The translations under genes were made by a program, and so were the position numbers. Below, in pieces: positions 24,187-62,603 of a stretch of 64,000 nt of DNA. Source of the DNA: Amphiscolops sp. MND2022 (taxonomy: Eukaryota); the NCBI GenBank assembly GCA_964187785.1, contig OZ076409.1, forward strand, positions 806,001 to 870,000, read 5' to 3'. The notes beneath the pieces were generated by a model. It ran no database searches and was not told where the DNA came from. It saw only the letters and a list, made by a program, of their open reading frames with translations. Every line of letters starts with the position of its first letter. Position 1 is the stretch's first letter.

Positions 24187-24486
24187 TTTGACGTCTAGTT
24201 AAAACGTCGTCAGAGTCAAGGTCTACCATTTGGTCTCTGGATAAAAGTTCAGGGAAACTGGCTTCACTTCCGTTATCGCTTGATCTATCCATATTTTCAG
24301 TTTCTACTTGTCTATTTTGACTACTTTGAGATCTGGTAATTACCATGAAAAGTCTGGAAGTTTTAAGTTGAATTGAAATGTTTTAATGTTAAAATAAGGA
24401 TTGATAACTCGTAAGCAAGGTAGTAGGCAACTGGTTATATCACTGGTTACAACTCGTGAGTGAGTTCGGTTTTACCCGGTTGTGTA
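24187..24486 (-). repeat. Third, internal partial copy (~300 bp) of the element A LTR replacing 3' gag, protease and RT
   Basis: Near-identical to ~25036-25334 and ~14253-14551; fused to gag on one side and to the pol connection region on the other. Confidence 0.9.
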
Positions 24487-25194: not shown

Positions 25195-25954
25195 GAAAAG
25201 TCTGGAAGTTTTAAGTTGAATTGAAATGTTTTAATGTTAAAATAAGGATTGATAACTCGTAAGCAAGGTAGTAGGCAACTGGTTATATCACTGGTTACAA
25301 CTCGTGAGTGAGTTCGGTTTTACCCGGTTGTGTAACTATAAAGGTGTGTTAGCATCTTTCCTTTTAGCCAATGACATTCGATTTACTAATTGCTGTTTAA
25401 TTGCACTTGACGACTGGCGGCTACAGTCGTGACGGGTGATAATCCGCGTTTAATTATTCATGTTTGATCCAGTATGACCGCAAGCACCAGTCATTTTAGC
25501 ACGCAATTGTCTCAATTGCCTCTTAAACTGAGGCTTTACTACCGCGTGTTCTTATCATCATGGTGACTGATTCAATTATCGTTTGGAGGATAATTACTAA
25601 AAGGCATTGTACAAATTGCTAATATGAATGAACGAAATGTAGTTGTTATGAATGATTGAATATTCTGGTAATACGTTACATGTAATATAAAAAATGGATG
25701 AAGAATGATTAAATCACAAACTATCACGATAGCTGATGACTGATTGTTTCAGTCTTGGTTTCTAAACGATGCACAATAATATGAATGAATTTAGTATTGA
25801 TGACTGTTAGTTCCAGTCGTATACTCTCAACTGTATTGTTCGGGGAATAAATTACTGCAATGTATTTTCATGATGATCTGTATTTTAGGGAGTTTGATGT
25901 ATAAATTAATGTTTTAGAGTTCGTTTAATTCCTTCATGCTTGGCGGGCATGACA
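24873..25954 (-). repeat. Element A 5' LTR (contains the gag ATG at 25194)
   Basis: Direct repeat of 14090-15172; directly followed by the PBS. Confidence 0.95.
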
Positions 25955-37437: not shown

Positions 37438-37982
37438 ACTATTCTGGGAACACTTGTGATAACCATTTACGTCAACCATATGCAGCTTAAAAATGAAAAA
37501 CCATCTAAGCTATTTCAGTATGCTGATGATACTACTGTATTTGGTGTTTCAAAAACACTAGATAGTGGAAAAGATATACTCGAGAGAAATGTTGAAAACG
37601 TGTTATCTTTATTTTTCAAAATCATCAACTGAATCTCAATGCCGATAAAGCTGATTTCATCATGGCTTGCCTGTCTAAAAATAATTCTACTGAACAGTTG
37701 AAATTAGGTGTTGAAACTTGAAACAAAATAAACAAAATGTGTTAAGTATTCGGAATGTGTATATTTAGAATCTATCTTTTCAGTTGAAACTGAAAAACAG
37801 AAAAATAGCCCGCGAAATTAAAACCATACAAAACAAAAGAATTTTATCGTTGAAATCATTGGTTTGAGTCATCTTCAATATTCGTCTGTTCTTTTGAACG
37901 TGTCACCCAAATCTTGAAAACAACCTCAACAGAGAAGCAGATGAACTAAGGAACAAATATTTTATAAACATAAATTGGACAG
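37438..37982 (+). pseudogene. Non-LTR retrotransposon (CR1/L2-like) RT fossil, interrupted by element B and probably resuming at ~54150-54380
   Basis: ILGTLVITIYVN...LFQYADDTTVF...NHQLNLNADK resembles LINE RT motifs (GPLLFxIYIND, YADD, LxLNxxK); frameshifted. Confidence 0.75.
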
Positions 37983-40273
37983 TGTCACAGTCCGCTCCCG
38001 GACTGGATTGCGGATGCAGGAGAGTTGGCTTTGGGCGTGGACATGGGTGCACCGCAAGACTCACGAAAAGGTATTTTGGCTATTAACTCGAACTCTAACT
38101 AAATTTAAATAAACTGTGACTTGAAATGCAATAATACTTTTGCCTAGCAAAAATTCCAAATAAAACTAGTGAACGCGTTCTAGATTTTTCATGCTCTCGC
38201 AAAATTGAATAAAATAGTACCGGAAATGTAAAATACACGTGTACCGCGCGCAAATTTGAGCGGAAATGAAATAAGGAAGCAAAATAATCCAAAAATGATT
38301 TCACGCATGTTTGGCTGGACGAGCCAACCACGACAAATGAAACATTCACAACCTGAAAATTAGAATAAAACTATCCCAGGAATAAAGAGACCATAAGCTA
38401 ATCTAAATGAAAATACATTTCATTCGGACCTAAAACAGGAAATTACAGTGAGACAACACACCGTGGTAATTAAGCCTTTTCTTAGAAAGACAGCTTAATT
38501 ACTCTTTTGAACAGCAATTAAAGTGATTTAGGACGTCGTCAATACTGCGCTGAGTAAACAAAGCGGCGAAAGAAACAAGAATACATGTATATTTGTCGTC
38601 AATAGGACGCAGACAAGTTTGAAGGCATACCAATTGACGTCACAGCCTCGCATAAGCGTACCAGGAAATCATTCCAATTATCCGCCTATACTAATAGCAT
38701 AGGTAGAAATCATTCCAATTTACCGCCACTGTGACGTCACTGCTCCGGTAGCTAGCGAGAGACTCATTTCTAAAATACTCGTCAACATGACGTTGACAAG
38801 TTCATGAAATTCAACTCTGCCAAGAAAACTCGTCAACATGACGTTGACAAGTTTATGAAATTGAATAAAGTGAATGAATTTGCTGAATTTAGTCAAGTTT
38901 TCATCGCGTAAAAGCCGTTATTTCTTAAGGAAAGAAAATTGCAGGCTGTTGCAAATTGTATAACGAACGTATTGTTGATTTTTCCATGGTTTAAGGTCTC
39001 AATTTAGAATGCGTTTTGACACGAGCAGGATAATTTTAACCTCATGTTAAGTAACTATCGTGCGCTCTTAACAATAAGGGAATTCCCGTGCATAAACCAT
39101 CTTATTACAAGATTCCACAGTAGATTAATTAGGAAGTCACAGTTTATTCTCTCCAACTAGAAGCTTATTATGTACCAGAAATGTATTTTTCATATATTTT
39201 GCATTTTTGTATTCTACAACATTGAGCGCTGTATTTGTGGCTGTGATCATGTTTTCTATATTAATCCATCCGTTGCTGTCCAGTTATTTACGTTGTGTTG
39301 GTGTTGTCATTTAACGAACGTTGCTGTTAATTTTATAAACCTTGTCGCATTTGACGCGACATGACAAAGTTGCTAACAAAGTATTATTTTCATATCGTGA
39401 TTTCATTCTCATCTCTATCAAAGGATTGAGTCCAAATTCATAAAATATCGTCCTAGCATCGTTTAAATATTCCTATTTTGGAATTAGTCATAGCATTTTT
39501 ATCAAAGCGAAGTTCAAAATCAGGTATTTGTTGTTCACGTCAGCGTCATCTCAGCGTCAATTTCCCGCGAACCAAAGCAGTAAAACAGGGAATCATTTCC
39601 GGTTTGACAGACTGAAGTAATATCTACTTCCTGCTTGGGAGGAAGCAAAAGGACGCCGAGATGAAACGATATGATCAAATTTGATGACTAATACTAAATG
39701 AAGATCATCGTGTCTCAAAAATTGACGAAATGTCGACGTAAAATTGGGAACAAAATGATTTTTTCATCGAGAATACAGGAAATGACTAATTGTTCGAGGA
39801 AAATTAGGGCTTTGTTCGTGATCAAATGATGCTGGGAGGGTATAAATATGTTAGGAGTTGATGACAAAGGGACTCAGTCTTTTGCAATTGTACAATTCAG
39901 TTGAATTTTCAATTTCACTCTTGCCTTGTTCTACTTTGTCAGAAAAATCTTTGAAAGAAATTCAATTCTTCAAGATCAAACTTTTCTACAAAATGTCGAC
40001 AACAAGAAGCCAAAAAAGGAAGGAACGATCAGCAAAGCACCAGTGAGAACGTAAGTGAAGGCTTGATTTCACCCATAGTAGTAGGAAATCCTTGTTCTTT
40101 GAATCAGGACGATGAAGTAGCGGGGCCTTCTAGACCTAAATCCCCCCGGATTGAGAATAGTCTCTTTGAAAGCTTGAGAACTTCATTAAAGGAAGAAATA
40201 ACGTCAGAGATTAAGAATCTTCTTATTGAATCTCAGAAGGAGATGTTGAAACTCCTTAAACCTGAAACAAGAG
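37983..40273 (+). repeat. Element B 5' LTR (last 117 bp and PBS deleted)
   Basis: Matches 51740-54027, then jumps into gag after GAAACAAGAG. Confidence 0.93.
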
Positions 40274-41297
40274 CACACACAAAAACCAGCCCAAAAGAAC
40301 AAAAGCCAGGTCTCAGAGCCAGCCGCCGTCAAAAGAACGTCCAGTAGCGGCAAGGACTTTATTTGCAACAGATAAAAACGATAGCACTACTCTGCCCATG
40401 CCAAAAGCACTAACGGCGTCACTCCCGACCTTCGACGGGAAGTCGGAAAAATTTGAACTATTCGAAGACCTTTTCCGGAATAACATAAAATTGTACCCGC
40501 ACCTTACTGAAATCCAAAAAATAAACTACTTCCACTCCCTCCTCAGGGGAGATGCCTTACAAGCATTTTGTAATATCGAAGATACGAAAAAGGATTCCCT
40601 TGATGAGATCATGACGATTTTCAAGCGACGTTTTGGAGACTATTTGTCTATGGCCAAGGCAAGATGCGAATGGGACGCGCTCAAATTCGACCCCTCGAAC
40701 CAGAAACTCCACGAATTTCTGGACATACTTCAAAAAACTGCCAAGGAAGCTTTTGGCTCTGAAGCCCAACAATTTATTGATAAGGCGATCTATGCAAAGA
40801 TGCCAGACCACGTCAAGAAAATACTAAACAGGGCATACCTCGAGGATAAACCCTATAATGATATAGTACTCCACCTAGAACGCGAAATGAGACTTAACGG
40901 CTTAGGAGCGCCGGATGAGGTAACCTTAGTACCGCTAAACAAGGTAGAACCAGCCCCAGCAAAAACTGAGCCCAAACAAGTCGACAACACAACGCAAAAT
41001 GTCAAAAAAGGATATTGCTTCTACTGCAACAAATTTGGACACTATAATGCAGAATGCAGAAAAATGAAGAGAGATAAATGGATGCAAACCAGAAAAAACA
41101 ATAGTCAAACTAACTCTAGTGCAGGCAAACCGCTCAAATGCGAACCATGTGGCAAACCCCACAAAACGGAAGATTGTTGGAACGGAGCCAACTCTGCCAA
41201 TGATCCACGACCTAAGCGTCACAACAATCCAGAATCAAAAAAGGACGTTCCCGTCCAACAAACGAAGGCCAACGCTGTCACTGATTCAAAAAACTAA
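39993..41297 (+). pseudogene. gag: Element B gag (+1 insertion near 40019, deletion at 40273)
   Basis: LPTFDGKSEKFELFEDLF...QKINYFHSLLRGDA; zinc knuckles CFYCNKFGHYNAEC and CEPCGKPHKTEDC. Confidence 0.9.
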
Positions 41298-41341
41298 TTA
41301 CGCCGCGCCTGCGCTTCGGGGAAACAGTAGACGCGAGGGCG
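41288..41341 (+). promoter_or_regulatory. Putative -1 programmed ribosomal frameshift signal (gag to pol)
   Basis: Slippery A_AAA_AAC immediately before the gag TAA; the -1 frame is the pol frame and is open through to the protease; GC-rich CGCC-GCG...CGCG-GGCG stem starts 6 nt downstream. Confidence 0.8.
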
Positions 41342-44300
41342 TATTTAACGAACGATCCCCCTACGACTTACACAAAAGATACAACAATAGAATGCGATGG
41401 AACTCCAACAGAGGACTGGCTGAGACGTCAGGCACTCGCCTCCATACGAAGACCCCTCATACAAACCGAAAAAGAGCAAACACCAGATGAGGACCATGGA
41501 GACGACCATAAACAACACCCAAATCTCATTCAGCCATCCCCGACCAACACAACACAATCCACCGCAACCCAAATAGAACAAACTGAAAACGCCCATGAAG
41601 ACCAACCACCGTCACCACTAACAAAGGAAGATACTCACGGCTCCACCCAAGTACCTATCTTCCCAGAAGATTTCCCCGCATCTCTCAACTCTATTAAAGA
41701 GTATGTTACTGAAAAGGACGGAGAGACGTACTTACCTCTCCACTCGACTATAGTCCTCAAGAGCAGGAGGAGAATGCTGTACTTGCCACTAGAATTTGGC
41801 GGAATAACAATGGATGGACTTGTCGACTCAGGTGCGTTCATCAATGCCATGTCCTGGTCGGACTACAATGCAATCAAAATGAACAGTGACAACTGTGTCA
41901 TAAAAGAGTATCCACAACCTCCTTTCAAAATCGAATGCGCAAATGCTCAACTGGAGCAACCAATAGCAACAGCCGATATACAATTCAACATAGGAACGTA
42001 TACCTTCACGGACACCTTCGTGATACTCTCAAAAACGTCCTTCCCAATAATAGGACTGAACTTCATGAGGAATCACCAAGCAGTGATAGATACAGCCAAT
42101 GGGACCATCACCTTCCCCCATGTCGAAATGACATTAGCCATGACAGATGAAAAGAAAAACTGTAACCCCAAACCACTCCAAATCATGACTGAAGGGAACC
42201 AGACACTGCCTCCACAACAAACAACAACCGTAAACGCAATAGTCATAACTACAAATGCAATTGACATCACAGGAGCAGTACAACCGCTACCACAGTTTGA
42301 CGAAACAGCAACCATCATCGTCGCACCAGCACTAGCCACAGCTCACAACAAACGAATCAATTTACGAATAGCCAACTTGACAGATTTCCCTCACACCATA
42401 AAAAATCACACCAAATTGGCAGAATTGCAAATCCTGCGGCCAGAAGACACCAAACAGATACGACCCATAGACGTCGCAACGCTAACCACTCTACAAGATC
42501 CAGATGACACACATATGTATGTGAATGAACTCATGAAATCCAGCGAAAATGAACAAAACGGTGAAAATTTCTGGTTCCCCACACCCGAGAACCCAGGAAA
42601 CGAAGAAGAACATACACCAATTCAACGAAGGATACTGAAAGAAATCCGTGAACTCATTCAAAAAGAAAAACTAGACCCAACCAAAGATCCAGAATCACGA
42701 AAACATTTCCTGGACATGTTCCAGTGGGAAGGTTCTCAAATCGAAGGCAATGACAGGAAGCAACTCGAGCAAACAATAGTCGAATACAACGATATCTTTG
42801 CCCGACATCGCCTTGACATCGGAATCAATAATAGCTTCAAAGTCAAATTAACTCCGAAAGACGAGCGTCCAATTTACACACAAAGCTTGCCAGTACCAAT
42901 TAACCTGAAAGAGGATCTAACAGTCGAATTAGCACTAATGCATAGGTACGGCATAATAACGACCCTACCATTCTCGAAATATGCAAGTCCAATTTTCGCA
43001 CAAAGGAAGCCAAATGGCAAACTGCGTCTACTCGTCGACCTACGAAAAATAAACGCACTAATTTCAGACGATTACATCAACAACAACCACCCAGTCAGCA
43101 CCCTGTCGGACGCAGCCCAACACTTAGCTGGGAAAAAGTTGTTCTGCAAATTAGATTGCTCCCAAGCATACCACTGTCTACAAATGGCAGACCAACGATC
43201 CATCGAGATGCTAGCATTCAACTTTGCAAGCAGAACCTTCGCATACAAACGGCTGGCACAAGGACTAAGCAGAGCATTATCGGCATTTTCAAGTTTCATG
43301 AGGGAATATTTGGATAAAGTAATCAAAGCTGACTAATGTGCGCAATATGAGGACGACATCGGCATAGCCGCCAACTCCGTGACGCAGCTGATACGAAACA
43401 TCCGAGCCGTCTTCGAATGCATCAGACAAGCAGGACTCAAACTATCCATTGACAAATGCCATTTTGGGGTGACCGAAGTCGAATTCCTTGGAAGGACGAT
43501 CACCCCACAAGGGATCGCCCCCAAGACCACAAGATACAGAAATTTTTAGCCAATGTGAGATTTCCAAAATCAAAGAAGCAAGTACAGAGGTACATTGGTT
43601 TTGTCAACTATTATCGCAACTACATCCCGCGATTGTCCGAAAAACTGCTCGGATTTTACGAACTATTGAAAGCACACAAGCAAATCAAGGTCACAGAAGA
43701 ACTACTCGATCACTACAAAGCGATCAACGCAGCATTGGCGCAAGCCTGTGGATTGGCTCTCAAACAACCAATCACAGGACGACAATACATCCTAATGACG
43801 GACGCCAGTTTCCGAGCCTCGGGCTATGCGTTGATGATCGAAGAAGACAACGACAAAAAACTCAATTCAAAAAAGAAGACATTTGCGCCAGTCGCATTCG
43901 GATCGAAAGTATTCTCCCCAGCACAGCTAAAAATGTCAATTTATTGCAAGGAATTTTTAGCAATATACCACGCCTTCCTAGAATACAGCCATATCCTGTG
44001 GGAAACAACTCTACCGACCTTAGTGATGACAGACAACAGATCAGTAACGCGGTTTTTCCAAACAAAAGCCATACCGCCTACCTTGTGGAACGCGTGCGAT
44101 TATGTACTACAATTCAATTTCCACATAATGCACGTGGCTGGTACACAGAATACAGCAGCTGATTTCCTATCGAGAATTGATCTCAACCCCAAGGAGAGAG
44201 TCGAATTAAAAATCAGAGAGGACATCACAATTCGCCCAATCCAAGTAAATCTACAGTCTACTGACGTCGCAGATGAAGAACAACTTTTCTTTCTTCCAGA

Positions 44301-46208
44301 TGAAACGATTGAAACCGAAGAAGATACACTCCTGCAGAAAGAACAAGCAAGACAAAATGCGCGCGACGAAGAGACGACAAAACTTAAACTAGCTATCAAA
44401 GAAACTAACCCAATCCCAATAAACAAAGCTTCCTACACCTTCGGGGCAATAAAAGAAGACGCGCGCATCAGAGCCGAACAAGATTCAAACCTAGTTTTCA
44501 AAGCAATCAAAAAGAAATTGATTTGTGAAGAATATGACAAACATCTCTTACAAACTGATCCGACAGCAAAACGTCTCCTCATCCACGAAAACAGACTAAT
44601 AGTCAAAGATGGCATCCTAATGCGTAAATATTACGGTGAATGTGGCCAAGTTACGCACCACCAAATACTAATCCCTGAACACTTGGTTCAGAACTTCTGA
44701 AAACAATACATGGACAAATGGGAAAACACCCAGGAATTACAAAAATGATTCAAGAATGCCGATCAAAGTACTATTACCCCGGTCTAGCAAAAAGAATCAG
44801 ACAATGGGTAATGCAATGTGAAGACTGTATCAAATACAAACGGATTAACAATAGCCAAATCAGACCAAAAATGATCAACAATACGGAACACGTCCTCGGC
44901 CCGGAGGACATTCTTGAAATTGACATATTACCAAATTTGCCAAACTCTGCGGGATACCAGAACATCGTTACGATGATCGACGTATTTTCACGTTACCTAT
45001 TTGCATACCCAACGCAGAATGTCACAGCGAAAACAATCGGACGATGTATTGTCGACGTCATGACAAGACACGCATACTTGCCAACATTAATCTTATCAGA
45101 CAAAGGCTCACAATTTCGATCAGAAGTCGTTACAGAAATAGCCCAGATACTCGAGATCCAAATCAGCCACGCGTCCACGAAACATGCACAAACGATCGGA
45201 CTTTTGGAAAGAACACATGCGTCAATCAAAACTGCACTAAAAATTTCCACGGGCGAAAGACGTTCGATGTGGCACAAATACGTCCAAATAGCCGTAATGA
45301 ACTACCATACAACATACCATGAGACTCTGGGCTGCGAACCATCTACAGTATTCCACGGACGAATACCCTACAATGTCCTTGACCTAAAACTGGGAATCAA
45401 ACCAAAATGGAAAACAACACCCAACTCGGACATAGCGGAGCAAATCCAAAAACAAATAGACGAGGTACGAGCGACAGCAAAGGACAACATCATGCTATCC
45501 TACCTCAAATACAAAAAATACTATGATCGCAAGGCATCAGCCGCCCCACTAAAAATCAACGACTATTGCTATATACTCAATCCGAAAGCCGACAATCAAT
45601 CGACAAAGTTTGCGTTTCAAGATTGCATTTGGACAGGACCGTACATAGTGATCAAAGTGCTTTCCAATAATAACTACACAATACGAAAGATTGGCACGAG
45701 ATATAAACAAACACTGCATCGAATCAGAATACGACCTTATGTGCCAGATCAACGCATACCCGTCGTCACAGTACGGTCAAACGAATACCTACCGGATCCA
45801 GACGTTAAAGTATCACACAATGAATGGTATGCAGTCTCGTGGGAAATGGATTTCGGAAAACAAATCGACGAACTCGACACATCAAAAAATACGGAGACTG
45901 AACAAAGAACAGAAATACAAGAGGTGACAAGTACAGACGACAACACGATGCCACAAAAATTAACTGACAATACAGACGAAATGATACCGCCGTCACCGGA
46001 CTTTTCGAATCTCACTACAGACGTAGGGGATAACCCATATATACGTCGCCCCCCACCCATTCAAAGTCCACCTATTCCCCCAAAATCTCCGCCTACAGTC
46101 GTTGGATATAATCCGAGAAAAACAGCGAAATATAATCTACGACCTAATCCTAAACCTAATGCTGACCCTGACTTTAGACGACTTGACGCAATGACTACGA
46201 CTCACTAA
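41294..46208 (+). pseudogene. pol: Element B pol (PR-RT-RH-IN), disrupted
   Basis: LVDSGA protease; LRLLVDLRKIN, LDCSQAYH, YEDD (probably mutated YVDD) RT; TDAS, KEFLA, TDN, ADFLSR RNase H; HHCC and DDE integrase; TAA at 43334, frameshifts near 43520 and 44690. Confidence 0.95.
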
Positions 46209-46422
46209 AAAATGAAAAGATAAATTCAGGAGTCCAGGCCGAACCGACCTGACAATTTTCAATTTACAGGCATACTACGACCTGAATAAATGTATTTTTC
46301 CTTTTATCACTCAAAATGTCATACTTCAGTTTGTATTCAATAATATATCGCAAAGGATAACAACAAAGAAATAAAACAACAACTACAATTCATACTACAG
46401 CGTACACAAAGATAAAGAAAAT

Positions 46423-49400
46423 TCATTTTCTCTCTGAACCCCCAGCAATTCCCTTACTCGAAGACTGCCCCGACTTCTTCTTACTCTTCTTTGATGCAGG
46501 TTCTCCAGTCCCCTCAACACTCTTCTTACGACCAAGCAATGAGGCAATACTTCCGTACACCTTCGTCTTACTAGGGCGAAAAGAACTAGATCCCCCCGAC
46601 GAAGAGCATGGGGGTGCGGAAACAGATGAAGCTGCCGGACTTTCCGATTGTGAAGAACATCCACCTTCACCACCACTTTCCACACTGTGACCAAGATCAC
46701 CCACACCACAGGGTGATTCACAACTGTTGCTCCTTTTGCGACTGATACGGTCATTTAATAGACGACGATAACGACCAACAAACGCAGACTGACCACCACT
46801 ACACAAGCCGTCCCAAGGGTCAAAATCAGAGCATAACATAAAGGAACTAGCACTGGCAATTGACTTCCGAACTTCACCAATTGTAAACTTTGTAAAAAAT
46901 GACCCCAGCTTGAACTCCGAAGACACAACACAACTCTGAACGCCCTGAATACACGTCGCGACAACAAGTTCAGGAACTGCGCAACCACTGCGATCTAAGT
47001 CTACTGCTGGAAATGTCATCCGAGGCTTTGAGACAACCAAACAGCACAGTTTGAACACTCGACATAATGACTTGCGAGCCAAAAAACTGTAATCGGATAG
47101 CAGATGATGGCGAACATCTTGGATAGCCTCAGCAATCCCTCCACTACTGACGTGTCGCGCTCGAGCATCAACAACAAACGTCGAATATTCTTCGGTAGCT
47201 GACTTTGACTCCAATGCAGAGATGACCCCACTCCGCTCTAACACACGGATCAACTTGCGAAACAACAATAACATATGATGGTCATCTCCCTCCAGTAGCA
47301 ACTCCGGACAGAATGAGTAAATACCTTGCGGAAGATCTCCAGTAACAGACTGCTGCGACAAAATGACAGTGACAAGACGATCCATGAATTTGCCACAGAG
47401 GCTCCGAAAAACTCGAGATTCTCCACTTTTATGACGACGAAGAACAGCGCCAAACTCATGGTTACACAGAAAATCGGCAGCAGCAACACTCTCATAGTCT
47501 TTCAGATTTGACGGGTCCATATACTCCTCCCATGCATCCAGACTGGGAAGAGAACCGAGCTTGCGACTGCGCGACAACAAACAGTAGACAAATTGGCAAA
47601 CTTCCATATAACCATGAAACCCGTAGTCAGGGCGACAAGCCAACTGTTTCTTGAACGAACACGAGTCTGAAACACAATATACCGACCAATAACCAACAAG
47701 AAAAAAAACAGTGTTTCCCCCACCCACTCCGTGCACAAAGAAAATAACACATAACAAACACGCTACATGAAAACCCAAGAAAACTAGACACCAGAATCAT
47801 ACTCACGGAGTTCGAGGATATGCAAGAGCAGGCCCAGACGCAATTCGCCAGTAGACTCAGAGTAGACATGCCAATCAGTGCCACGCATCTGCAACATACA
47901 GCCAACACTACTAAAGACCCGTTCACAATCACATGAACAATGAAGCCTACATGGAAAATCCCGACTATGAGAAAAAAAAGAAAAGAAAGACAAAGAATTT
48001 CTTACCCGGCCAGCTCCAGTCTTGAAATGTCGAGGACCAGTGTGTCTGACAAAATCCTGCACCGAGGACCACACGGCAATCAAGTCAGTAACGACAGCTC
48101 GCAAATCTACGAAGTCGACACGGCCAGCAACGATGCAGCGACGAAAGTTAGGCACACTCTCACACCAGGACTCCTGCAGAGCACCTCGCAACCGAAGCAC
48201 GAGATAATCGACCATCATCGTAGTCTCTAGGCTACCGAACACTTCCTGATGAGCAAGTCGGAAGCAATACAAAAATACTTCAGCGTCGAACTCCCGATAC
48301 ATGAGGAACTCACGTCCATCCACTCGAGTATCGCTGAAAACCCGCAACAAGGTCGGACTACCACCATGACATGACAACGGCATCTGACATGAGGCAGTAC
48401 TATCAATAACGCGAGATAGTCCAGCTAACTCAGCTTCAGGAACACGTTGCCCAACTGACTCCACCCTCACACAGACGCTCATCAACGTGTGGTCATCAAA
48501 AGTTTGAACAAAGCACTTGTGCAAACCATCCACCTCCGCAAAGAAGACACTGTTTTCCCGAAAGGCACTAATCCGAGCAACGAGAGCGCGCAACACACGA
48601 GGGAAGAGGGCTCCACAGATCAACGACTAAAACATAACGACGAATGCCCACTATATTTAAACAAAAAAGGGGAAAAGAAAAGAAAAAACAGCAAAAGAAA
48701 AAAAAGGAACAAACCCCTATCTGAATCAAAACCAAAACAAAAATACCAACCAATGACTCCGGTCGGCTCCACTGTATGCTGTACAGAGGGTTCTCGGGTC
48801 CAAGAGTTGCACGGAAACATCCCCACAACTTCCGCAAAAGGGTATGACTACCACCAAATCGCAACAGTTCGATCAAGCAATTAACCATCGACATGAGGGG
48901 CACGCTCGAATCTGGCTGGACACAAGCAGGAAGCAAATCTTCGGGGAAACTGAATCCCTCATCTTTTCCTTTACTAGGACGATTGCGGTACTCTTCCAAC
49001 TGTGCATCACTTAGAACCATGGGATCCATGAGGCGATTGTATACCGGCAAACCATTCTGCACACGATAAGTGACATCGAGTTGCCAGTGACGTTTCCCAA
49101 AAAAGTGCCGACTAAACTCGGCAGCACCCCGCGACTCCATGGAGACGTCCCGCTGACAAATCATGCAGTGAAACAGCTTGTTGGAGCCAGTACTCGAGCC
49201 GCTAACGAAAAGCTCATAGATGGGATTTCCAACGACCATATCCCGTCGAAGATGATTTCGTGGGCTATACACACGTTTCCGACTGCGATCAGCACTTTCC
49301 AAGGTCGTCTTCATCCGATTGATCAATTCTTCAAAACCTGCAATAAACCAACTATCACATAACTAAGCACCACGAGACAAAACTGTGGAAACAAACAGAA

Positions 49401-50449
49401 AAGACGAATCGCTCCAATTAGTTGATACACCAAATACAAGAATATACTCACGAGCAACGAAAGGGTCCAACGTGTGATTCTCTGCATCTGAAATGCCAGC
49501 CCTCAACACCTCACCAGATTGCACAGACATGCCAGGCAACGTAGTAACCACCTCACACGTCTCGTCTGCGTCCAACAAACTGAATCGCACAGTCGGTACG
49601 GCAATCCCCGTCCTATCCTCCAAAGAAGACTTCGAAGCCGACTGGTCATCAGTCCCACCATCCTCAGGGACAATAAGCTGTACTAAAACAGAAAGAAACT
49701 TCCTCGCATCAGCTGAGACAACCACAACGATACACTTCCCCTCATTTTTCCTTTCTCTCTCACTCTCACGTATACACATAAAAATTTAAAAGTCATCAAC
49801 AGACCAACTCACCACGTTTATTCTTCGACGATACAGCTTCAGCTCCGCCGGATGCTACTTCTTGTCGCAAGAATGACGCAAACCGCGGAGAAACAGTAGT
49901 CTGGCTACTCCCTGCTCCCTCTTTGAGAGGGGGGGAGCCCCCTCACCTTCGTGAGCGACCGCAACAACAGTGGGAGCAGCAACCTTGATGATGTCAGCCA
50001 AGGTAACGTCAGAATCACTAGAGCCATGCAAATCGGGAGCGGCAGGAGCAGGAACATCAACTGGAGAATCAGTAGCATGGTGCGTCGAATCAGCAAGAGG
50101 CACAAGAGAAACTCCAGAGAGATCACCAGGAAGAGAAGCTTTGAGCGCAGTGTTGGAAGCCCCAGCCAAAGGAGAAGAAAACCTCGGTTCTGGCAACAAA
50201 TAAACATCCCATAACGACGCGTCAGAAAATCTAAGCTGTGAAAGATGCAAACAGAAAAAGGCCAATCTGTAAAGAGCATTAATTCACGGAAAGCTTAAAG
50301 GAATGGGGAACAACAAACTCACCTGTTGCAGGCCGACGAACAACGTCCGCATCACTCGGATAAAAGTCTCCCTCAGAAAAGACAAATTGGGTCTCATTGC
50401 CGCTCTGAGCGCCGGTGTCAAGACGAAACCGAGGAGTTTCTTGATTCAT
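46423..50449 (-). CDS. Element B antisense 7-exon cargo gene (1087 codons): C2H2-type zinc finger plus inactive hAT-transposase-like region; one in-frame TAG in this copy
   Basis: Exons 50449-50323, 50189-49813, 49677-49452, 49337-48751, 48626-48006, 47888-47807, 47666-46423 (3264 nt, all phases match); GT-AG introns of 114-140 nt; finger FHCMICQRDVSMESRGAAEFSRHFFGKRH; basic C-terminus SKKSKKK; TAG at 49855-49857. Confidence 0.8.
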
Positions 50450-50480
50450 CACAAATAGCAGGAATCTGAAAACAACAACC

Positions 50481-50900
50481 AAATTGACGTCATCATAACG
50501 GTGACAAAATCAAAAGTTAGCTAAGCTAGCGAAATTGACGTTGGCATAACGTCGGCAAAAAGGTTATCTGGGTTAAGAAATTAATCCGATATCCTAAAAT
50601 GACGTCATCATAACGGTGACAAAATCAAAAGTTAGCTAAGCTAGCGAAATTGACGTCGGCATAACGTCGGCAAAAAGGTTATCTGGGTTAAGAAATTAAT
50701 CCGATATCCTAAAATGACGTCATCATAACGGTGACAAAATCAAAAGTTAGCTAAGCTAGCGAAATTGACGTCGGCATAACGTCGGCAAAAAGGTTATCTG
50801 GGTTAAGAAATTAATCCGTTATCCTAAAATGACGTCATCAAAACGGTGACAAAAATCAAAGTTAGCTAAGCTAGCGCAATGACGTCAGCATAACGTTGAC
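50481..50900. repeat. 115-bp tandem repeat, ~3.6 copies, rich in TGACGT motifs
   Basis: TGACGTCA recurs at 50485, 50600, 50715, 50830. Confidence 0.95.
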
Positions 50901-51115
50901 AAGCTCAGCCGAGCAAATTAATTTAACCAACAACCAATAAAACTCGATGTCGACATATCGCCCACACCTGAAGATTAAAAAAGATTAAAATGGTTGAACA
51001 GCCAATCAAAATGAAGGGATTTTTTCCCAATAATTTCCCTAATCCTAATCAACCCTGAAATTCATTGTGAAACAATCAAACTCGAAAAACAGCAGCCAAG
51101 AAATTTCGCCGCAGA

Positions 51116-51843
51116 ATGAACAACTTGTTAGATATCTACGAACTAATCGACATCTCGTCATCAAGCGAGGAGGAGGGCGAAATAACAAGATCGTCCACCC
51201 CAATACCTAGTGACAGCAGGGCCTATCCGGGGTTGGTCATCGAAATTCTGAACTCATCAGCAGAGGCGAACGCAGACGAGGAAGAATGCCTCGACCTATC
51301 GGTAAATTCACTAGAAACAGAATGCAAGAAAATGAAGCTGAGTGAGTCGTTCTCTAGTTTTGAAACTGTAGAATCGGGACAATGCCCCCACACTGAGTCG
51401 ACCGAAGAAGTTATTGCTGACTCCCCGGAAAGCCCTGATGAAAGTCTTCGGACATATTCATAGTAGAAGCCCCAGCTGTACAAACCGAATCAGTAACAAG
51501 TAGCAAAGTAGCCGAATATCTGGAGAAGGTGCAGCAAGAAGACGCCTCTTCATACTTTGTCACGCCCCCTGGTCCACTGAGAAGAATAAATCTGCTGACA
51601 ACTAGTCCTCTAAACGATCTGGAGGAGCCGAAATTAGCGCTAGACGAAGCCAAGGAAAACTACACTCGCGAAAATCACCTGCGACAGGCGTTCGACTCCT
51701 ATCAACCCGGTAAAGCCGTTCGCCCCATGACAGTGGCCCTGTCACAGTCCGCTCCCGGACTGGATTGCGGATGCAGGAGAGTTGGCTTTGGGCGTGGACA
51801 AGGGTGCACCGCAAGACTCACGAAAAGGTATTTTGGCTATTAA
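51116..51843 (+). pseudogene. Element B extra sense ORF (~240 aa, acidic/Ser-rich) running into the 3' LTR; 1-nt frameshift near 51445
   Basis: ORF 51116-51463 and a frame open 51442-51843 overlap and join with one added base (SPDESSSDIFIVEAP). Confidence 0.5.
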
Positions 51844-54144
51844 CTCGAACTCTAACTAAATTTAAATAAACTGTGACTTGAAATGCAATAATACTTTTGC
51901 CTAGCAAAAATTCCAAATAAAACTAGTGAACGCGTTCTAGATTTTTCATGCTCTCGCAAAATTGAATAAAATAGTACCGGAAATGTAAAATACACGTTTA
52001 CCGCGCGCAAATTTGAGCGGAAATGAAATAAGGAAGCAAAATAATCCAAAAATGATTTCACGCATGTTTGGCTGGACGAGCCAACCACGACAAATGAAAC
52101 ATTCACAACCTGAAAATTAGAATAAAACTATCCCAGGAATAAAGAGACCATAAGCTAATCTAAATGAAAATACATTTCATTCGGACCTAAAACAGGAAAT
52201 TACAGTGAGACAACACACCGTGGTAATTAAGCCTTTTCGTAGAAAGACAGCTTAATTACTCTTTTGAACAGCAATTAAAGTGATTTAGGACGTCAATACT
52301 GCGCTGAAAAAAACAAAGCGGCGAAAGAAACAAGATTACATGTATATTTGTCGTCAATAGGACGCAGACAAGTTTGAAGGCATACCAATTGACGTCACAG
52401 CCTCGCATAAGCGTACCAGGAAATCATTCCAATTATCCGCCTATACTAATAGCATAGGTAGAAATCATTCCAATTTACCGCCACTGTGACGTCACTGCTC
52501 CGGTAGCTAGCGAGAGACTCATTTCTAAAATACTCGTCAACATGACGTTGACAAGTTCATGAAATTCAACTCTGCCAAGAAAACTCGTCAACATGACGTT
52601 GACAAGTTTATGAAATTGAATAAAGTGAATGAATTTGCTGAATTTAGTCAAGTTTTCATCGCGTAAAAGCCGTTATTTCTTAAGGAAAGAAAATTGCAGG
52701 CTGTTGCAAATTGTATAACGAACGTATTGTTGATTTTTCCATGGTTTAAGGTCTCAATTTAGAATGCGTTTTGACACGAGCAGGATAATTTTAACCTCAT
52801 GTTAAGTAACTATCGTGCGCTCTTAACAATAAGGGAATTCCCGTGCATAAACCATCTTATTACAAGATTCCACAGTAGATTAATTAGGAAGTCACAGTTT
52901 ATTCTCTCCAACTAGAAGCTTATTATGTACCAGAAATGTATTTTTCATATATTTTGCATTTTTGTATTCTACAACATTGAGCGCTGTATTTGTGGCTGTG
53001 ATCATGTTTTCTATATTAATCCATCCGTTGCTGTCCAGTTATTTACGTTGTGTTGGTGTTGTCATTTAACGAACGTTGCTGTTAATTTTATAAACCTTGT
53101 CGCATTTGACGCGACATGACAAAGTTGCTAACAAAGTATTATTTTCATATCGTGATTTCATTCTCATCTCTATCAAAGGATTGAGTCCAAATTCATAAAA
53201 TATCGTCCTAGCATCGTTTAAATATTCCTATTTTGGAATTAGTCATAGCATTTTTATCAAAGCGAAGTTCAAAATCAGGTATTTGTTGTTCACGTCAGCG
53301 TCATCTCAGCGTCAATTTCCCGCGAACCAAAGCAGTAAAACAGGGAATCATTTCCGGTTTGACAGACTGAAGTAATATCTACTTCCTGCTTGGGAGGAAG
53401 CAAAAGGACGCCGAGATGAAACGATATGATCAAATTTGATGACTAATACTAAATGAAGATCATCGTGTCTCAAAAATTGACGAAATGTCGACGTAAAATT
53501 GGGAACAAAATGATTTTTTCATCGAGAATACAGGAAATGACTAATTGTTCGAGGAAAATTAGGGCTTTGTTCGTGATCAAATGATGCTGGGAGGGTATAA
53601 ATATGTTAGGAGTTGATGACAAAGGGACTCAGTCTTTTGCAATTGTACAATTCAGTTGAATTTTCAATTTCACTCTTGCCTTGTTCTACTTTGTCAGAAA
53701 AATCTTTGAAAGAAATTCAATTCTTCAAGATCAAACTTTTCTACAAAATGTCGACAACAAGAAGCCAAAAAAGAAGGAACGATCAGCAAAGCACCAGTGA
53801 GAACGTAAGTGAAGGCTTGATTTCACCCATAGTAGTAGGAAATCCTTGTTCTTTGAATCAGGACGATGAAGTAGCGGGGCCTTCTAGACCTAAATCCCCC
53901 CGGATTGAGAATAGTCTCTTTGAAAGCTTGAGAACTTCATTAAAGGAAGAAATAACGTCAGAGATTAAGAATCTTCTTATTGAATCTCAGAAGGAGATGT
54001 TGAAACTCCTTAAACCTGAAACAAGAGGGGTTATTAGAGAAAATACCGAAGAAGAGGTAGAGGAGGAAACTAGAAGTTTCTATACTCCTACAAAATCAGT
54101 GAGAATAAGTTCTACTCAAAACGACCCGATAGCATGTCGTAACA
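51740..54144 (+). repeat. Element B 3' LTR (2405 bp), contains an intact Gag N-terminal ORF from 53748
   Basis: Direct repeat of the 5' LTR; MSTTRSQKRRND... open to the terminal AACA. Confidence 0.93.
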
Positions 54145-54394
54145 GACAGAGCTAAATACCTACGAATGAGGAACAATATATTATCAATTAGAACTTTCCT
54201 TGATGTGAAAGCTTTTGGAAAATGATGAAAAGTTTCATTGCTCCCAGTTTTCATCGAAACATTGTGAATCTTTTCCAAAATCAACACCAACCCAAGACAG
54301 AACGAACCAGCTCGTGTACAACAGCTCTGCTAACACAAGTTTCATGCCGGAGCCGGATTGTTTTCAAAACGAATAAGTACCTATAAGGAATTCT

Positions 54395-57616: not shown

Positions 57617-60600
57617 TGTAATCGCGTGGTCTAAGCTTTGTTGAAAAGAGTATTCAGTGGTAACTATCTTGTGTATTGTTTCAGACCATATGGTGATGTT
57701 GAATCTTTTGGTTGAACAAATTGTTCAACGGAGCAGGTATTTTGTCAACACAATGGTTGCTCTTTTATGATCGCTACCACATTCCCCCGCCGGCAATTGA
57801 CGGTTGGGAATTTCGTTCACACTACAAGTAACAAGAACATAATGTACAAGGTTAATGAAGTAAGTAGTTTAATAAAATGTCACAACTAAGAAGTTTCAAA
57901 GAGAGAGTTTATTTTGGTTTTGACACTGCGCATATGTACACAGACGGCCGTGTCGATCTGGCGCCTTCCTGGACCTTCGGGCCCGTTCCTCTACCGTTGG
58001 GGTATCGTTGGCAGTGTCTTGGTTGCAGTTTCTTTCGTTTTCTTCTAAGTCTGCGAAGACCTGGGCTGTTTGCTGTTTCTTCTCATTTTCGATCTCTTCC
58101 ATCACATAGTTTTTGGCTTTCTTGGGTTTTGGTTGTTTTCTCGTCTTCTTTTCGCCTCTGGCCACTTCTCTTTTGGATAAGACGATCTCATTGGTCCTTT
58201 CGGCTGGCACAAATTTGATGGTGTGGCTAGTTTCTCCAGTGATTTCCCCCTTCGTTTTTTGAAAAGTCCTGCCAGTTTTCTTTTTCTTTGGCGGTTTCGT
58301 ACGAATATGGTGCTGTCATCATCTCTTGGAAATTCTTTCAGTTTTTCCAAGTCCACAGTTCTGTCGAATTCTAAATCATTCAATTCTTTGTACAGTTTTA
58401 CAATTATCGATGTTACAGTGTTTGGTTTTCTACCTGTATGTCGCTCGTAGGAAGATTTTCCGTCTTTTCCCTTGTTGGTCCTTAGCGCACTTATTAGTTC
58501 GTAGAACAATTTGTTTTGTTTCTCAGTTAGTACTTCAGGGTTCGCTCTTAGCCTCTCATTTATTGTCCTCACCAGTCTTTCGACTTTTCCATTTCCCCGG
58601 TGATCATATAGGGGACAGACTACGTGTCGCATCCTAGTTCTTTTTGGAACTGTCTAAACTCATTTCCCATAAATACCGTAGCCTGATCCCTTCTTAATTT
58701 TTGCGGAATTCCATTGTCACTAATATATTTCCGTAGGAATTCTGTTACTTCTTTGATTGCAGTGTTTTTGACAAATTTTAAGGTCGGATATGCGGAAAAT
58801 TGATCTATGGCTACGAGTAAATATTTTTTATTTTCAGGTGCGCCAGCGAATGGTCCCATAAAATCGAGTGCTACTTCTTCATTTACTTGTTTTGCCTTTT
58901 GAACAGTTCCAAATTCGCTTTGTCTTTTAAGAACTTTAATATTCTTACCTGCGTTTTGGCAACTTTTGCAGGTCTTTGCGGACGCCACAATTTGTCTGTG
59001 GATCTGAGGCCACCAAACTTCGTCTACGGATCCTAACATTGCATCACGACCTGGGTGTCCACTGTGGATGCTATTTAGGACTACCTGCCGCATGTCACGG
59101 GGAATAACTAGCCTGTTCTCGAAGAAAACTAGTTCTCGATCCACTCTTAGATCTTTGAATACTGGCTTGAACAATTTGTTTTCCTTTCTTAGGAAATTTA
59201 CATCTCGGCGTAATACTGCCTCTCTGACATTTTGTAATCCAGAATCAGATTGGTAATATGCCATTAAGATAATGTCGTTTATTTCTTTGAATGTTTTTAC
59301 TTTTAGAAATTTAACTTCAGGTAAATGCTCGGTAGATGTAGAAGGGTTGTTTTCTTCAATTGATGATACTATTGATTGAATAGGTGAGGTTTTCAAATTT
59401 TGCGACTGAACAATTTGTTTATTCGGAACGCTCTTTGAAGTTTTACTTAAATTACGTAGAGCGTTCTTTTCGCGGCTTGCTTGAAGGCGACTCATTTTGG
59501 AGTGTTTGCTAATCCGATTAGTGCTAGCGACGTTCTCGCTTTCCGTTCTTTCGCTCGCACTTTGCTCAATTCCTATTGGTTGATTGAACAAGTTGTTCAA
59601 TCTGTGATTGGTGTATAGCTGCCTATAGTAGTCTTTATTTATTTCTTCTACTGAATTCACTACAAACCAACTCTCCCATAGTTCCGTCGCATTTTTAGAC
59701 CATTCTTTTTCGTTATATTCGTTAGGGCGGCGGGACAAATAGTCCGCTAATCCCAGAGTTCTACCCGGTTGATGTATAACTTCCATGTCGAAGGGTAAAA
59801 GGCGGTCTATCCATCTAGTGAGTCTGCTGGAATACGTTTTATTTCCGTGGTGACTTTTTAAGGCTGTTTCAAAGGCTTTATGATCCGAAACTACTTCAAA
59901 TTTTGTACCGTATATGTAATTTCGGAAATGTTCTACGGTCCAGACGATGGCAAGGAGTTCTAATTCATTCGTAGAGTATTTCATTTCGTAGTTACTCAAG
60001 TATCTTGAAGCGCAAGATATGAGTTCCCACTCCTTTTCGCCCTTTTCCTGTAGCAGTAGTGCGCCCAATCCTTGGTGGCTGGCGTCGCAAATTATTCGCA
60101 ATTTGTTTTCTCTATTAAAATGTGACAATTTTATAATATTTTGGAGGCTTTTTTGTACTTGATCAAAAGCGATGTCATGTTTCTCTTTCCACTCCCAATT
60201 TCCGTCCGTTTTTAACAAATCTCTAATCGGTTCCGTCAGCTGGGCTAGTCCGGGTATAAATTTTATCAACTGATTCACTGCCCGAGGTACGATCTTAGAT
60301 CTTTCAAGTTTTTCGGTTTCATTTTTCCGGATATACCCTGTATTTTCTCATTATGTGGTTTCACTCCCTTTTCTGATATGTCAAATCCGAGCCATTCAAT
60401 CTCGTTCTTTGCAATTTTGCATTTATCTTCTTTTAGTTGTAATTTTCTACTATCTAATTTTTTAAAAGCTTCTCTAACCTTTTCTTCATGTTCTTCTTTT
60501 GTTCCCTTTGTTACTATTAAAATGTCATCTATAAAAACATAGACATTTGCATTATTAAAGAAAATTTCTTCCATTATTCTTTGAAATTCGGCGGGCATTA

Positions 60601-62603
60601 CTGTCAACACGTAAAATCCTGTTAAAATTGGTAAATACCGCTAGCCTTACCGCCTACAATTGCGAAATTACAATGTTTTGCTAAACTAGGGTTTAAAAGA
60701 ACTTGTCCAAACGCGTATTTCAAATCTACTGATGTGAACCAGACTTTTCAAGGTCCGTCGCCTGTGATTGTTTCGGCTAATGAGCAAATTAAATCGTCTA
60801 AGTTGGGCATTTGATATTTGTCTTTCTTTATGTTTTCATTCATGACTCTTGCGTCCAATGCGATTTTTATGCTTTTGTCTTTTTCAACTGTAATAACTGT
60901 GGGTTGTATAAAAACGTTGTTTCTTCATTTATCTCGTTGACTTTCTCAATATGTCTCATTTTGATCAATTTTTTGATTTCAATTTCAACCGAATTTTGTA
61001 GTTGGAGCGGTATCCTACGTCCATTTTGTTGTTTCGGTACGCAGTTTTCTTTAAATTGCGCGTTTATTTCGTGACCTTCTAATCGTCCTTTTTGTGAAAA
61101 TACTCCTTCAAATTCTTTAAACAATTTGTTCGTCGGTTCGCTTATGCAATTAATTTCACACTTACCACCTTCCGTCTTTAATTAGATTCCGAGGCCTCTT
61201 AGCCAATCTCTCCCTACCACTGTCCTCGTCCCATTTTCCGCAACTAATGCGCGCACTTTCTCCAGTTTCTTCGCCCCGGATTCGACTTGGCCAATAATTG
61301 CACCCAAGAATTCGATCTTGTTGCTGCTATAGTCGACATACTTCTCATTCTTATTGAGCGGTTTCATCGTAAAGTGCTTTCCAAAAATCTTTTCTGCGTG
61401 GGCCCTGGTGAAAATCGTGATTGGCGACCCGGTGTCGATAAGCGCATGGAACGGTTTTCTGTTGAATTTGCCTTTCAACACGAACGGCTTGTTCTTTGGG
61501 GTCTCTCCATCTATATGTAGAATTTCTACTTCCTCGGCAGATTCTTCTTCTGAACTGCTCCAAGGGCTTTTTGTGCGAATCGCATTTACCTTCCGGTTTG
61601 CTGTGTTATTCTTCTTTGTCTCTGAGGTCTTTAGTCTACACATTCTGGCGTAGTGGCCGGTTTTTCCGCAATTTCTGCATTCTACGCCTTTTGCTTTGCA
61701 GACTCTTCGTATGTCCCATTACAAAGGGTTTTTCGCCGCATTTATAGCATTCATTGTTCTTCTCCACCCCGAACACGGCTTCTGCTTTGATATTTGCAGT
61801 TTCCACACAAATTGTTTTTTTCTGCTGCGCACCCTGTTCAAAGGCAATGGCAAATATTAATGTCTCCTCGGGGTTATCCTTAGGCTCAGTAAATAGCCTC
61901 TCTTGGACCACCACCTTCTTCATGTTGGAGACAAAAATGTCGTAAACTAAGCTGATTGTTTGGGTTCCAAAGTCACAATTTGAAGCCAGCCCGTTTAGTG
62001 CATGCCAAAATTGCTCTAGGGTCTCTCCTTCTAATTGTTTGCGGTTGAAGAATTTGTGTCTATCCATAAGTCTGTTTCGCTTCTTGTGGAAGGCATCTTG
62101 GCATTCTTTTAGCAGTTCGTCTAAGTTCATGGTTTCTATATCCATGTTGGGTTTTCTGTCCAAAAGCGTTTTCCTTGCCGCCTCCTCGAGCGCAGTGTAA
62201 AGGAAACTAACTGCCTTTTTCTGAGCTATTTGTTCTTCTGACCCGCCCATCAGCTCTTTTCTTCTGGCATTTGTTGAGGCATCTCTGGTCAGTTCGTCCG
62301 GGGAGATTGAGGACTTTGCCATTAATGTGGCCTCGAAAAGCTCGATCCATCGGCTCCACTCATAAACTCTCTCTGCTGATGCATCTTGCCAAAATACGGG
62401 TATGCCCGAAACAGGCTGATTTTCGGCTCGCAGCGCCATGTAATCGCGTGGTCTAAGCTTTGTTAAAAAGAGTATTCAGTGGTAACTATCTTGTGTATTG
62501 TTTCAGACCATATGGTGATGTTGAATCTTTTGGTTGAACAAATTGTTCAACGGAGCAGGTATTTTGTCAACACAATGGTTGCTCTTTTATGATCGCTACC
62601 ACA
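57617..62603 (-). mobile_element. Ty3/gypsy LTR retrotransposon C (5.0 kb, Mag-like, no cargo)
   Basis: 165-bp LTRs 57617-57781 and 62439-62603 (one mismatch seen); TSD CTGAC; PBS TGGCGCTGCGAGC (tRNA-Ser-like); purine tract GCGGGGGAA. Confidence 0.95.
57896..62439 (-). pseudogene. Element C gag-pol, multiply frameshifted
   Basis: CYKCG knuckle; LIDTGS protease; VFIDDILI RT; ICDAS, NELELLA, ADYLSR RNase H; IHSGHPG...CKSC, LDFMGP, NGKVER integrase. Confidence 0.93.

Follow-up and report, generated by a model that had tools for sequence, protein, structure and literature searches.

A seven-exon antisense gene for a protein of predicted hAT-like fold in a Ty3/gypsy-type retrotransposon family of Amphiscolops

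A Ty3/gypsy-type long terminal repeat (LTR) retrotransposon family in the genome of Amphiscolops sp. MND2022 appears to carry, between pol and the 3' LTR, a seven-exon antisense gene for a hAT-like nuclear DNA-binding accessory factor that probably does not cut DNA. This reading, to which we give a probability of roughly 60%, was developed from one copy, element B, located in a 64,000-nt stretch of assembly GCA_964187785.1 (contig OZ076409.1, positions 806,001-870,000 of the forward strand). This whole stretch is called the window below, and positions are given in its coordinates; the antisense gene and its product are referred to as cargo. Three lines of evidence are presented first: the conserved exon-intron structure of the gene, the predicted fold of an intronless relative, and selection on the encoded protein.

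Results

Gene structure

Five long minus-strand open reading frames (ORFs) in two phases extend across 46300-50700. Alignment of this part of the window with four copies from the same genome, belonging to subfamilies approximately 22% diverged, displayed highly conserved blocks interrupted by short, barely alignable stretches of the form GT...AG. The gene model derived from this alignment begins with an ATG at 50449-50447 and ends with a TGA at 46425-46423 on the minus strand, the same ends as those proposed in a first-pass annotation of the window. Its exons are given below, with the ratio of nonsynonymous to synonymous substitution rates (dN/dS) or the proportions of differing nonsynonymous (pN) and synonymous (pS) sites for some of them.

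Exon 1, 50323-50449, minus strand: ATG kept in 5/5 aligned copies; donor GTGAGT; dN/dS 0.11-0.19
Exon 2, 49813-50189, minus strand: low-complexity, Pro/Ser/Ala-rich; frame break in the window copy
Exon 3, 49452-49682, minus strand: weak constraint, dN/dS 0.23-0.38
Exon 4, 48751-49337, minus strand: CxxC-x15-H-x5-H zinc finger and helical region; pN 0.05-0.06 versus pS 0.64-0.80
Exon 5, 48006-48626, minus strand: N-terminal half of the predicted RNase H-like core (β1-β5) and start of the helical insertion
Exon 6, 47807-47888, minus strand: 27 codons plus 1 nt; conserved amid diverged introns; aligns to LLHVLV of intronless proteins
Exon 7, 46423-47666, minus strand: predicted helical insertion domain; C-terminal portion of the predicted core, containing AVDLDRSG; then a Ser-rich region, the Lys-rich tail, and the stop codon TGA

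The six introns of the window copy (133, 130, 114, 124, 117, and 140 nt; phases 1, 1, 1, 0, 0, and 1) are all bounded by GT and AG, and intron length ranges from 96 to 180 nt across copies. These borders are retained in 28 of the 30 intron-by-copy combinations, the exceptions being an acceptor in L013 and another in L012. Between subfamilies, introns 2-6 share 51-67% identity, and the changes in exons 4-7 are mostly synonymous. The seven exons and six GT-AG introns of 114-140 nt described in the first-pass annotation are thus borne out by border retention, by the divergence of the introns and by the intronless relatives described below. Intron 1 (50190-50322) is 78-83% identical between subfamilies, as against 51-67% for the other five, a degree of conservation suggesting that it may contain a regulatory element.

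One internal stop within 1087 codons had also been reported, and this was not upheld: the stop in question, at 49365-49363, falls within intron 3 of the present gene model. The exon total is instead 3269 nt, a length not divisible by three, and the window copy has its frame broken within exon 2, where a homopolymer run differs in length from copy to copy. Eight near-identical copies were compared at this run; six share the length found in the window, one is open across the whole exon, and one has a third length. Outside this break, the antisense gene of the window is open. A tiny intron of 26-35 nt was considered as the cause of the break and rejected: the introns of the gene measure 114-140 nt, beside which it would be too short, and one copy reads through.

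Intronless relatives

Queried with exon 5, a collection of 1.8 billion representative proteins returned 239 matches at E ≤ 0.001, 126 of them at E ≤ 1e-10. The 150 matches listed are mostly fragments of 70-260 aa, and two longer ones are contiguous, intronless versions of the protein. With an intronless homologue as the query, proteins of 815-887 aa were recovered, and a later profile search yielded 171 proteins. None of the 130 matches listed (10 + 120), all from ENA assemblies, bears a name or a precomputed Pfam domain, and a cluster look-up for 10 family proteins found neither name nor accession among 62 members. A word-index search with the exon-4 ORF, confined to longer proteins, gave 890 candidates of which none was scored, relatives having come through the contiguous homologue query, and a search of the ESM Atlas with exon 5 gave no usable match.

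One intronless homologue, P0151 (849 aa), is encoded with 100% identity in the genome from which the window derives (genome search: 10,906 first-look candidates, 53 scored). Exon 4 corresponds to P0151 residues 1-203 (36% identity, E 7e-34), exon 5 to residues 205-401 (29%, E 5e-18), and exon 7 to residues 452-723 (26%, E 2e-21); exon 6 occupies part of the gap between the last two. Since exons 4-7 are in this way collinear with intronless homologues of 800-890 aa from the same genome, with matches that follow exon order and stop at exon borders, the exon junctions are independently validated. Nothing in the intronless proteins corresponds to exons 1-3. At three of three loci, the elements carrying an intronless version share the layout of the intron-bearing lineage: they begin with an LTR followed by gag and pol, next come the antisense ORF (870-910 aa) and a sense ORF (260-265 aa), and a second LTR closes the element.

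Predicted fold

The cargo product of approximately 1090 aa is predicted to comprise a loosely constrained N-terminal extension (exons 1-3), a C2H2/BED-like finger, a hAT-like core, and a Ser-rich, Lys-rich tail. P0151 was modelled by AlphaFold2 with a 37-sequence alignment, giving a mean predicted local distance difference test (pLDDT) score of 78.8 and a predicted template modelling (pTM) score of 0.68. Residues 227-305 of the model are ordered β-β-β-α-β-α, the order of the RNase H-like fold, and are followed by a long helical region. The RNase H-like core of the model is split by a large all-α insertion domain, which is the architecture of Hermes.

A Foldseek search of the Protein Data Bank (PDB) with this model identified 11 matches at E ≤ 0.001, all of which are chains of Hermes, a hAT transposase (probability 1.0, E between 1.6e-5 and 9.4e-4); the best match after these has an E-value of 0.02 and a probability of 0.14. 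The comparison with Hermes proposed in the first-pass annotation thus gave the expected match, for a homologue model in place of the spliced protein. Among 48,161 chains, Hermes stands more than 6 Z units above any other, with the sheet core and the insertion domain both covered. Largely helical models may attain such Z scores by chance, a concern countered here because the match is unique, spans sheet as well as helices, and is agreed upon by two aligners. The language-model neighbours of P0151 are the DUF4371, ZBED5/FAM200, ZBED1, and DUF659 clusters, at 0.82-0.87, which is under the 0.9 line and serves as a lead only. On the basis of the model, cargo is considered hAT-like in fold and probably hAT-derived.

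Neither its sequence nor its catalytic residues place cargo within the hAT superfamily. The C-terminal hAT dimerisation family PF05699 (Dimer_Tnp_hAT) was undetected in cargo, whereas the same genome gave 150 PF05699 matches elsewhere as a control. A genome search for DUF4371, found in Buster-type hAT proteins, was intended to supply a second set of reference sequences; it returned nothing at E ≤ 1e-15, as did the control genomes, and was set aside.

These data also bear on a different ancestry, in which cargo would be an RNase H-like protein that arose independently or far earlier, such as a member of a different, structurally unsolved DDE superfamily with a helical insertion, and Hermes would be no more than the nearest known shape. 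We regard such an origin as unlikely, though it is the most serious of the alternatives: it agrees with the sequence comparisons, but would have to account for the lead of Hermes over all other chains across both subdomains, the Foldseek probability of 1.0 for 11 Hermes chains, an N-terminal CxxC..H..H finger placed as in hAT proteins and, as a weaker point, language-model neighbours that are hAT-derived families.

Catalytic positions

Catalytic positions were placed by topology and motif resemblance, with the first Asp at the end of β1, the second just after β4, and the Glu in a C-terminal block. In the 37-sequence alignment, no acidic column is conserved in the region of the first Asp (residues 227-236, comprising β1 and the following loop). 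The second position is Gly in 27, Asp in four, Asn in three, and Ser in one of 35 sequences. The Glu-equivalent lies in the motif P-x-V-[DE]-[IM]-S-x-S-G and is acidic in 27/27 sequences (Asp in 18, Glu in nine). The window protein has A-E-V, G, and D at the three positions, and a conserved Asp-Asp-Glu (DDE) triad is absent from the cargo family. Placed in this manner, at least both Asp residues appear to have been lost, with an acid kept at the hAT Glu position. Without these two Asp residues, the protein has most likely lost the ability to cut DNA.

The first-pass annotation had described the catalytic Asp as missing, which agrees with these placements. It had also described the C-terminal Glu as missing, and this is probably wrong, the likely equivalent being the Asp or Glu of the block that reads AVDLDRSG in the window. 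The string LCRVFKLCCL, taken there for the ERxFS motif, more likely belongs to the preceding helix and so lies one helix too early. No sequence method confirmed its motif-by-motif hAT assignment. An ERVFS-like string within a 280-aa open frame was examined as a candidate for the hAT C-terminal motif and rejected; it falls within intron 5 and is unconserved.

It is improbable, and clearly more so than a non-hAT ancestry, that cargo has stayed active as a nuclease or recombinase by means of a non-canonical catalytic site, offering a second route of DNA cutting or joining. The unfailing acid at the likely Glu position, several further acidic core columns conserved at 80% or above, and the Asp found at the second position in four of 35 sequences would fit such an enzyme, but the first two catalytic positions are unconserved (mostly Q/R/K/S/E and G, respectively), the element possesses its own integrase and ordinary 5-bp duplications, and ends resembling terminal inverted repeats (TIRs) were not found.

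Selection on the encoded protein

For exons 4-7, comparison of the window with four diverged copies gave pN of 0.086-0.136 and pS of 0.60-0.74, corresponding to Jukes-Cantor dN/dS of 0.048-0.084 in all four pairs. Synonymous sites are near saturation, which makes these ratios rough; the uncorrected pN/pS is at worst 0.13-0.18. In the same subfamilies, pol has pN 0.088, pS 0.61, and dN/dS 0.074, and the likeness of the two ratios indicates that cargo is constrained as strongly as pol. Exons 1 and 3 are less constrained (dN/dS 0.11-0.38). The comparison of cargo with pol that the first-pass annotation had called for therefore returned values far from 1, and by this measure the cargo protein is under strong purifying selection.

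Low dN/dS, conserved splice sites, and long open frames together point to selection on the protein. This makes it very improbable that the antisense transcript itself is what matters, as a source of double-stranded RNA or small RNA that tunes the element, with an incidental reading frame. Regulatory antisense transcription is discussed for several retroelements in PMC7264820, and an account of this kind would draw on that precedent; it is opposed by dN/dS of 0.05-0.08 despite near-saturated synonymous change, and by splice sites that are conserved and frames of 870-910 aa that are open in many copies.

The carrier element and its copies

Element B is a single insertion of a Ty3/gypsy-type LTR retrotransposon, belonging to a family in which two additional genes separate pol from the 3' LTR. 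Its features other than the antisense gene are as follows.

37978-37982: target-site duplication GACAG, left copy; the same 5 bases are found 3' of the 3' LTR at 54145-54149
37983-40273, plus strand: 5' LTR, begins TGTCAC; 2292-bp direct repeat, 99.5% identical to 51740-54027
39955-46208, plus strand: gag-pol, Ty3/gypsy-type; pol of the window copy broken by one in-frame stop and two frame changes
50481-50896: 115-bp tandem repeat (Tandem Repeats Finder), 3.6 copies, each with TGACGTCA, between the antisense gene and the sense ORF3
51071-51843, plus strand: ORF3, acidic and Ser-rich, composed of ORFs 51071-51463 and 51442-51843, reaching about 100 nt into the 3' LTR; frame break in the window
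51740-54144, plus strand: 3' LTR, 2405 bp, TG...CA (TGTCAC...GTAACA)

A deletion of approximately 137 bp has removed the 3' end of the 5' LTR and the primer-binding site from the window copy. Sibling LTRs are 2385-2455 bp long and end with GTAACA, followed by TGGTGACAGG; a primer-binding site beginning with TGG lies 3' of the 5' LTR in two siblings. Two sibling copies are flanked by 5-bp duplications of their own (CCGTG and ACGAC). The Pfam families matched by the ORFs of the window are ordered DUF1759/Retrotrans_gag, Asp_protease, RVT_1, RT_RNaseH, Integrase_H2C2, and rve, which is the Ty3/gypsy order. The order protease, reverse transcriptase (RT), RNase H, integrase recurs in the open 1828-aa pol of a related element, and pol frames are open at 1261-1469 aa in other copies. 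The gag frame begins within the LTR, approximately 400 nt from its 3' end, and continues across the LTR end and primer-binding site (53610-54155 and 39855-40347 in the window; 2624-4198 in copy C4 (L017+L018)), and both LTRs therefore hold the first 130 or so gag codons.

A search of the same genome with exon-4 DNA (582 first-look candidates, 40 scored) located 14 places at 94% identity or above, that of the window included, and many at 77-79%. The antisense gene adjoins pol in all nine copies of the intron-bearing lineage that were examined, and at six of six fetched loci of the subfamily approximately 22% diverged the alignment runs unbroken from the antisense gene into pol. Inverted repeats flanking 46200-51100 are at chance level, the best pair being 14 nt long and 86% identical, and one of its arms falling within pol. 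TIRs with an 8-bp target-site duplication were not found around the gene, the mobile unit being the LTR element with its 5-bp duplication. The antisense gene is an integral part of the LTR element and no nested transposon. The first-pass description of an accessory gene kept by a retroelement is in this respect well founded, the gene being present in every copy and subfamily examined, with no TIRs around it and with dN/dS of approximately 0.05-0.08. The notion of a nested DNA transposon or captured host gene fragment confined to this copy, which the first-pass annotation had named as its own possible undoing, can be dismissed, since the segment occupies the same position in 14 near-identical places (the window's included) and in diverged subfamilies, exists in intronless form in other families, and has no flanking inverted repeats.

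Modules of these elements recombine. The pol proteins of L036+L037 and L040+L041 are 96% identical (pS 0.08), whereas their cargo is 74% identical (pS 0.74). Comparison of L010 with the window and C4 gives 91-96% identity between the diverged subfamily and the window type for ORF3 and the repeat region, as against approximately 78% for cargo and pol.

The window contains two further retroelements. Element A (14090-25954) has 1083-bp LTRs that are 99.1% identical and a minus-strand gag-pol, and is distinct from element B. Between its pol and 3' LTR lie antisense, plus-strand ORFs at 15808-16275, 17561-18145, and 18487-19806. The second of these resembles the RNase H-like region of the cargo family (hhalign probability 84%, E 7.8e-6, 162 columns), by which the accessory gene seems to span several element families; the match of the third is not significant (E 0.28). 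The other retroelement, at 58100-62500 on the minus strand, has gag, protease, RT, and integrase-like ORFs, and its DNA is unrelated to elements A and B.

Zinc finger, tail, repeats and ORF3

The finger CxxC-x15-H-x5-H has invariant Cys57 and His83, and Cys60 and His77 are at least 90% conserved (25 sequences). A Ser-rich, Lys-rich C-terminal tail is present, so that both the finger and the basic tail proposed at first pass are retained. No zf-BED match was obtained with Pfam in the cargo ORFs or the alignment members, and the weak Foldseek rows of an exon-4 model are small zinc-finger and spliceosome chains. Exons 1 and 3, together with both types of ORF3, match no Pfam family.

The 115-bp repeats hold five of the window's 14 TGACGTCA palindromes, and their units are conserved in diverged copies. 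Each LTR of element B has two further such palindromes (38635 and 38732; 52390 and 52487). From its location between the antisense gene and ORF3, the repeat region may be a bidirectional internal promoter. TTTTCAG just 5' of the ATG (50452-50475, minus strand) is conserved in 5/5 aligned copies and may be an acceptor site for splicing to a non-coding exon upstream, in which case the promoter would lie further upstream, possibly in the 3' LTR.

ORF3 is open at 257-258 aa in five of the nine copies examined (C4, L010, L011, L012, and L014). The ORF at the equivalent position in elements with intronless cargo has 260-265 aa and is 24% identical to ORF3. The ORF3 stretch ELIDISSSSEEE resembles a SUMO-interaction motif.

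Discussion

The observations above are best explained by a Ty3/gypsy element family whose seven-exon antisense gene encodes a hAT-like accessory factor. The gene would be transcribed from its own promoter, either the cAMP response element (CRE)-bearing 115-bp repeats upstream or one further up, and the protein translated from a spliced mRNA of the gene's own. In the sense genomic RNA, antisense-strand introns are no introns and pass through reverse transcription untouched, which is why they would survive retrotransposition. The protein would then enter the nucleus, bind DNA without cutting it, and act in trans for the element, given that selection within a transposon family maintains features that favour the multiplication of its copies. 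If cargo is a DNA-binding accessory factor, control of element transcription is its most likely role, much as for domesticated hAT/ZBED proteins and retroviral antisense proteins, at a little under even odds; integration targeting is markedly less likely, and other roles, such as countering host silencing, take up the remainder. The data themselves favour none of these roles.

Several observations weigh against this explanation. The hAT likeness put forward in the first-pass annotation stands for the fold, in which Hermes is the sole strong structural match, and fails for the sequence. Pfam assigned the five cargo ORFs of the window to no family at E ≤ 0.1 and found no hAT family at E ≤ 1 in 14 alignment members, apart from which three single-member chance matches were obtained (E 0.03-0.15). 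A sequence-profile search of the PDB returned three noise matches (E 0.56-0.96), none of them to a transposase. The 37-sequence cargo alignment matched a hAT set from the same genome with an hhalign probability of 0.1% and an E-value of 0.58, reaching only the CxxC of the finger; this reference is a small set of five full-length transposases, which as a positive control match Hermes at E 8.5e-65. The fold was predicted for a homologue that is no more than 26-36% identical to the window exons, and the catalytic positions were placed by topology and motif resemblance. Acidic core columns are conserved at residues 258, 268, 301, and 338, and these, with the acid in 27/27 sequences at the third catalytic position, make an unusual active site conceivable. 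For the BED-like finger, the exon-4 model has a pLDDT of 66 and no Foldseek match at E ≤ 0.001 (best E 0.96). Finally, the window copy is defective (exon-2 frame break, broken pol, loss of the 5' LTR end and primer-binding site), and neither AATAAA nor ATTAAA occurs within 530 nt 3' of the stop.

A more far-reaching version can be offered tentatively, as we consider it about half as probable as the accessory-factor reading itself. A whole animal Ty3/gypsy clade may have domesticated a hAT-like protein as an essential DNA-recognising trans factor, acting in transcription from the LTR or the internal CRE repeats, or in steering the pre-integration complex, and one lineage may have gained the introns and the N-terminal region within the retroelement, where antisense orientation would shield the introns.

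Compared with Hermes and the hAT superfamily, cargo has no detectable sequence homology, does not conserve the two Asp residues, and is without TIRs or 8-bp duplications. It sits in an LTR retrotransposon, is longer by approximately 70 structured residues, and carries a long, disordered tail; in the lineage of the window, it is also interrupted by six introns and extended N-terminally by 245 aa. Domesticated hAT transposases of the ZBED, DAYSLEEPER, and GTF2IRD2/FAM200 type have lost transposition and become DNA-binding or regulatory factors. Clusters of such families are the language-model neighbours of P0151 (0.82-0.87). However, domesticated hAT proteins are single-copy host genes, whereas cargo is kept by a retrotransposon and multiplies with it, and their Pfam domains were not found here.

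A viral parallel is HBZ of human T-cell leukaemia virus (HTLV) type 1, a small basic leucine zipper (bZIP) protein that is encoded antisense, has its own promoter, and acts on transcription. Cargo likewise is a minus-strand protein-coding gene near the 3' end of a retroelement, but is structurally unrelated to the bZIP protein. PMC7264820 refers to the antisense promoter that HTLV has in its 3' LTR.

The closest known kind is represented by the antisense ORFs between pol and the 3' LTR of the plant elements Retand, Grande, and RIRE2 ("aORF-3R"). As described in PMC11963269 and PMC7264820, the antisense ORF of such elements is kept in most copies and tandem repeats are found in the same region; some of the proteins are nuclear, a nuclear or DNA-binding role is suspected, and at least one has its own promoter. 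Cargo shares with them a conserved coding ORF that is antisense to gag-pol, located between pol and the 3' LTR, and present in most copies. In contrast, the plant ORFs, found in flowering plants, mostly contain TRP28 (PF04195), reported in 97% of Retand clusters (PMC11963269), or other domains, none of which Pfam found in cargo. The host of the present elements is an animal (its genome has Wnt genes), and the hAT-like fold, spliceosomal introns, and coexistence of spliced and unspliced lineages further set them apart. The word "intron" does not occur in the main text of PMC11963269 or PMC7264820, and the latter urges looking for antisense and spliced transcripts. The full-text literature searched yielded no LTR retrotransposon with an accessory gene described as hAT-like or as having an RNase H fold, a scope that leaves aside Repbase-type reports and subscription journals.

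Little is understood about the accessory genes of LTR retrotransposons, and the printed antisense examples that were found come from plants and have no known fold. The animal case presented here joins a recognisable hAT-like fold, predicted for a homologue, with the apparent loss of two Asp positions and very strong purifying selection; its first-look candidate matches number in the thousands, and its diverged lineages are several, both spliced and unspliced. Genome annotations probably mask or miss the cargo family, given the 130 listed matches without a name or Pfam family. If descent from hAT is true, a class I element is able to take over the scaffold of a class II transposase for use in regulation or targeting. 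The family would also offer a natural system in which to follow the origin and persistence of introns in transposon genes, and the rise of retrovirus-like regulatory complexity in retroelements.

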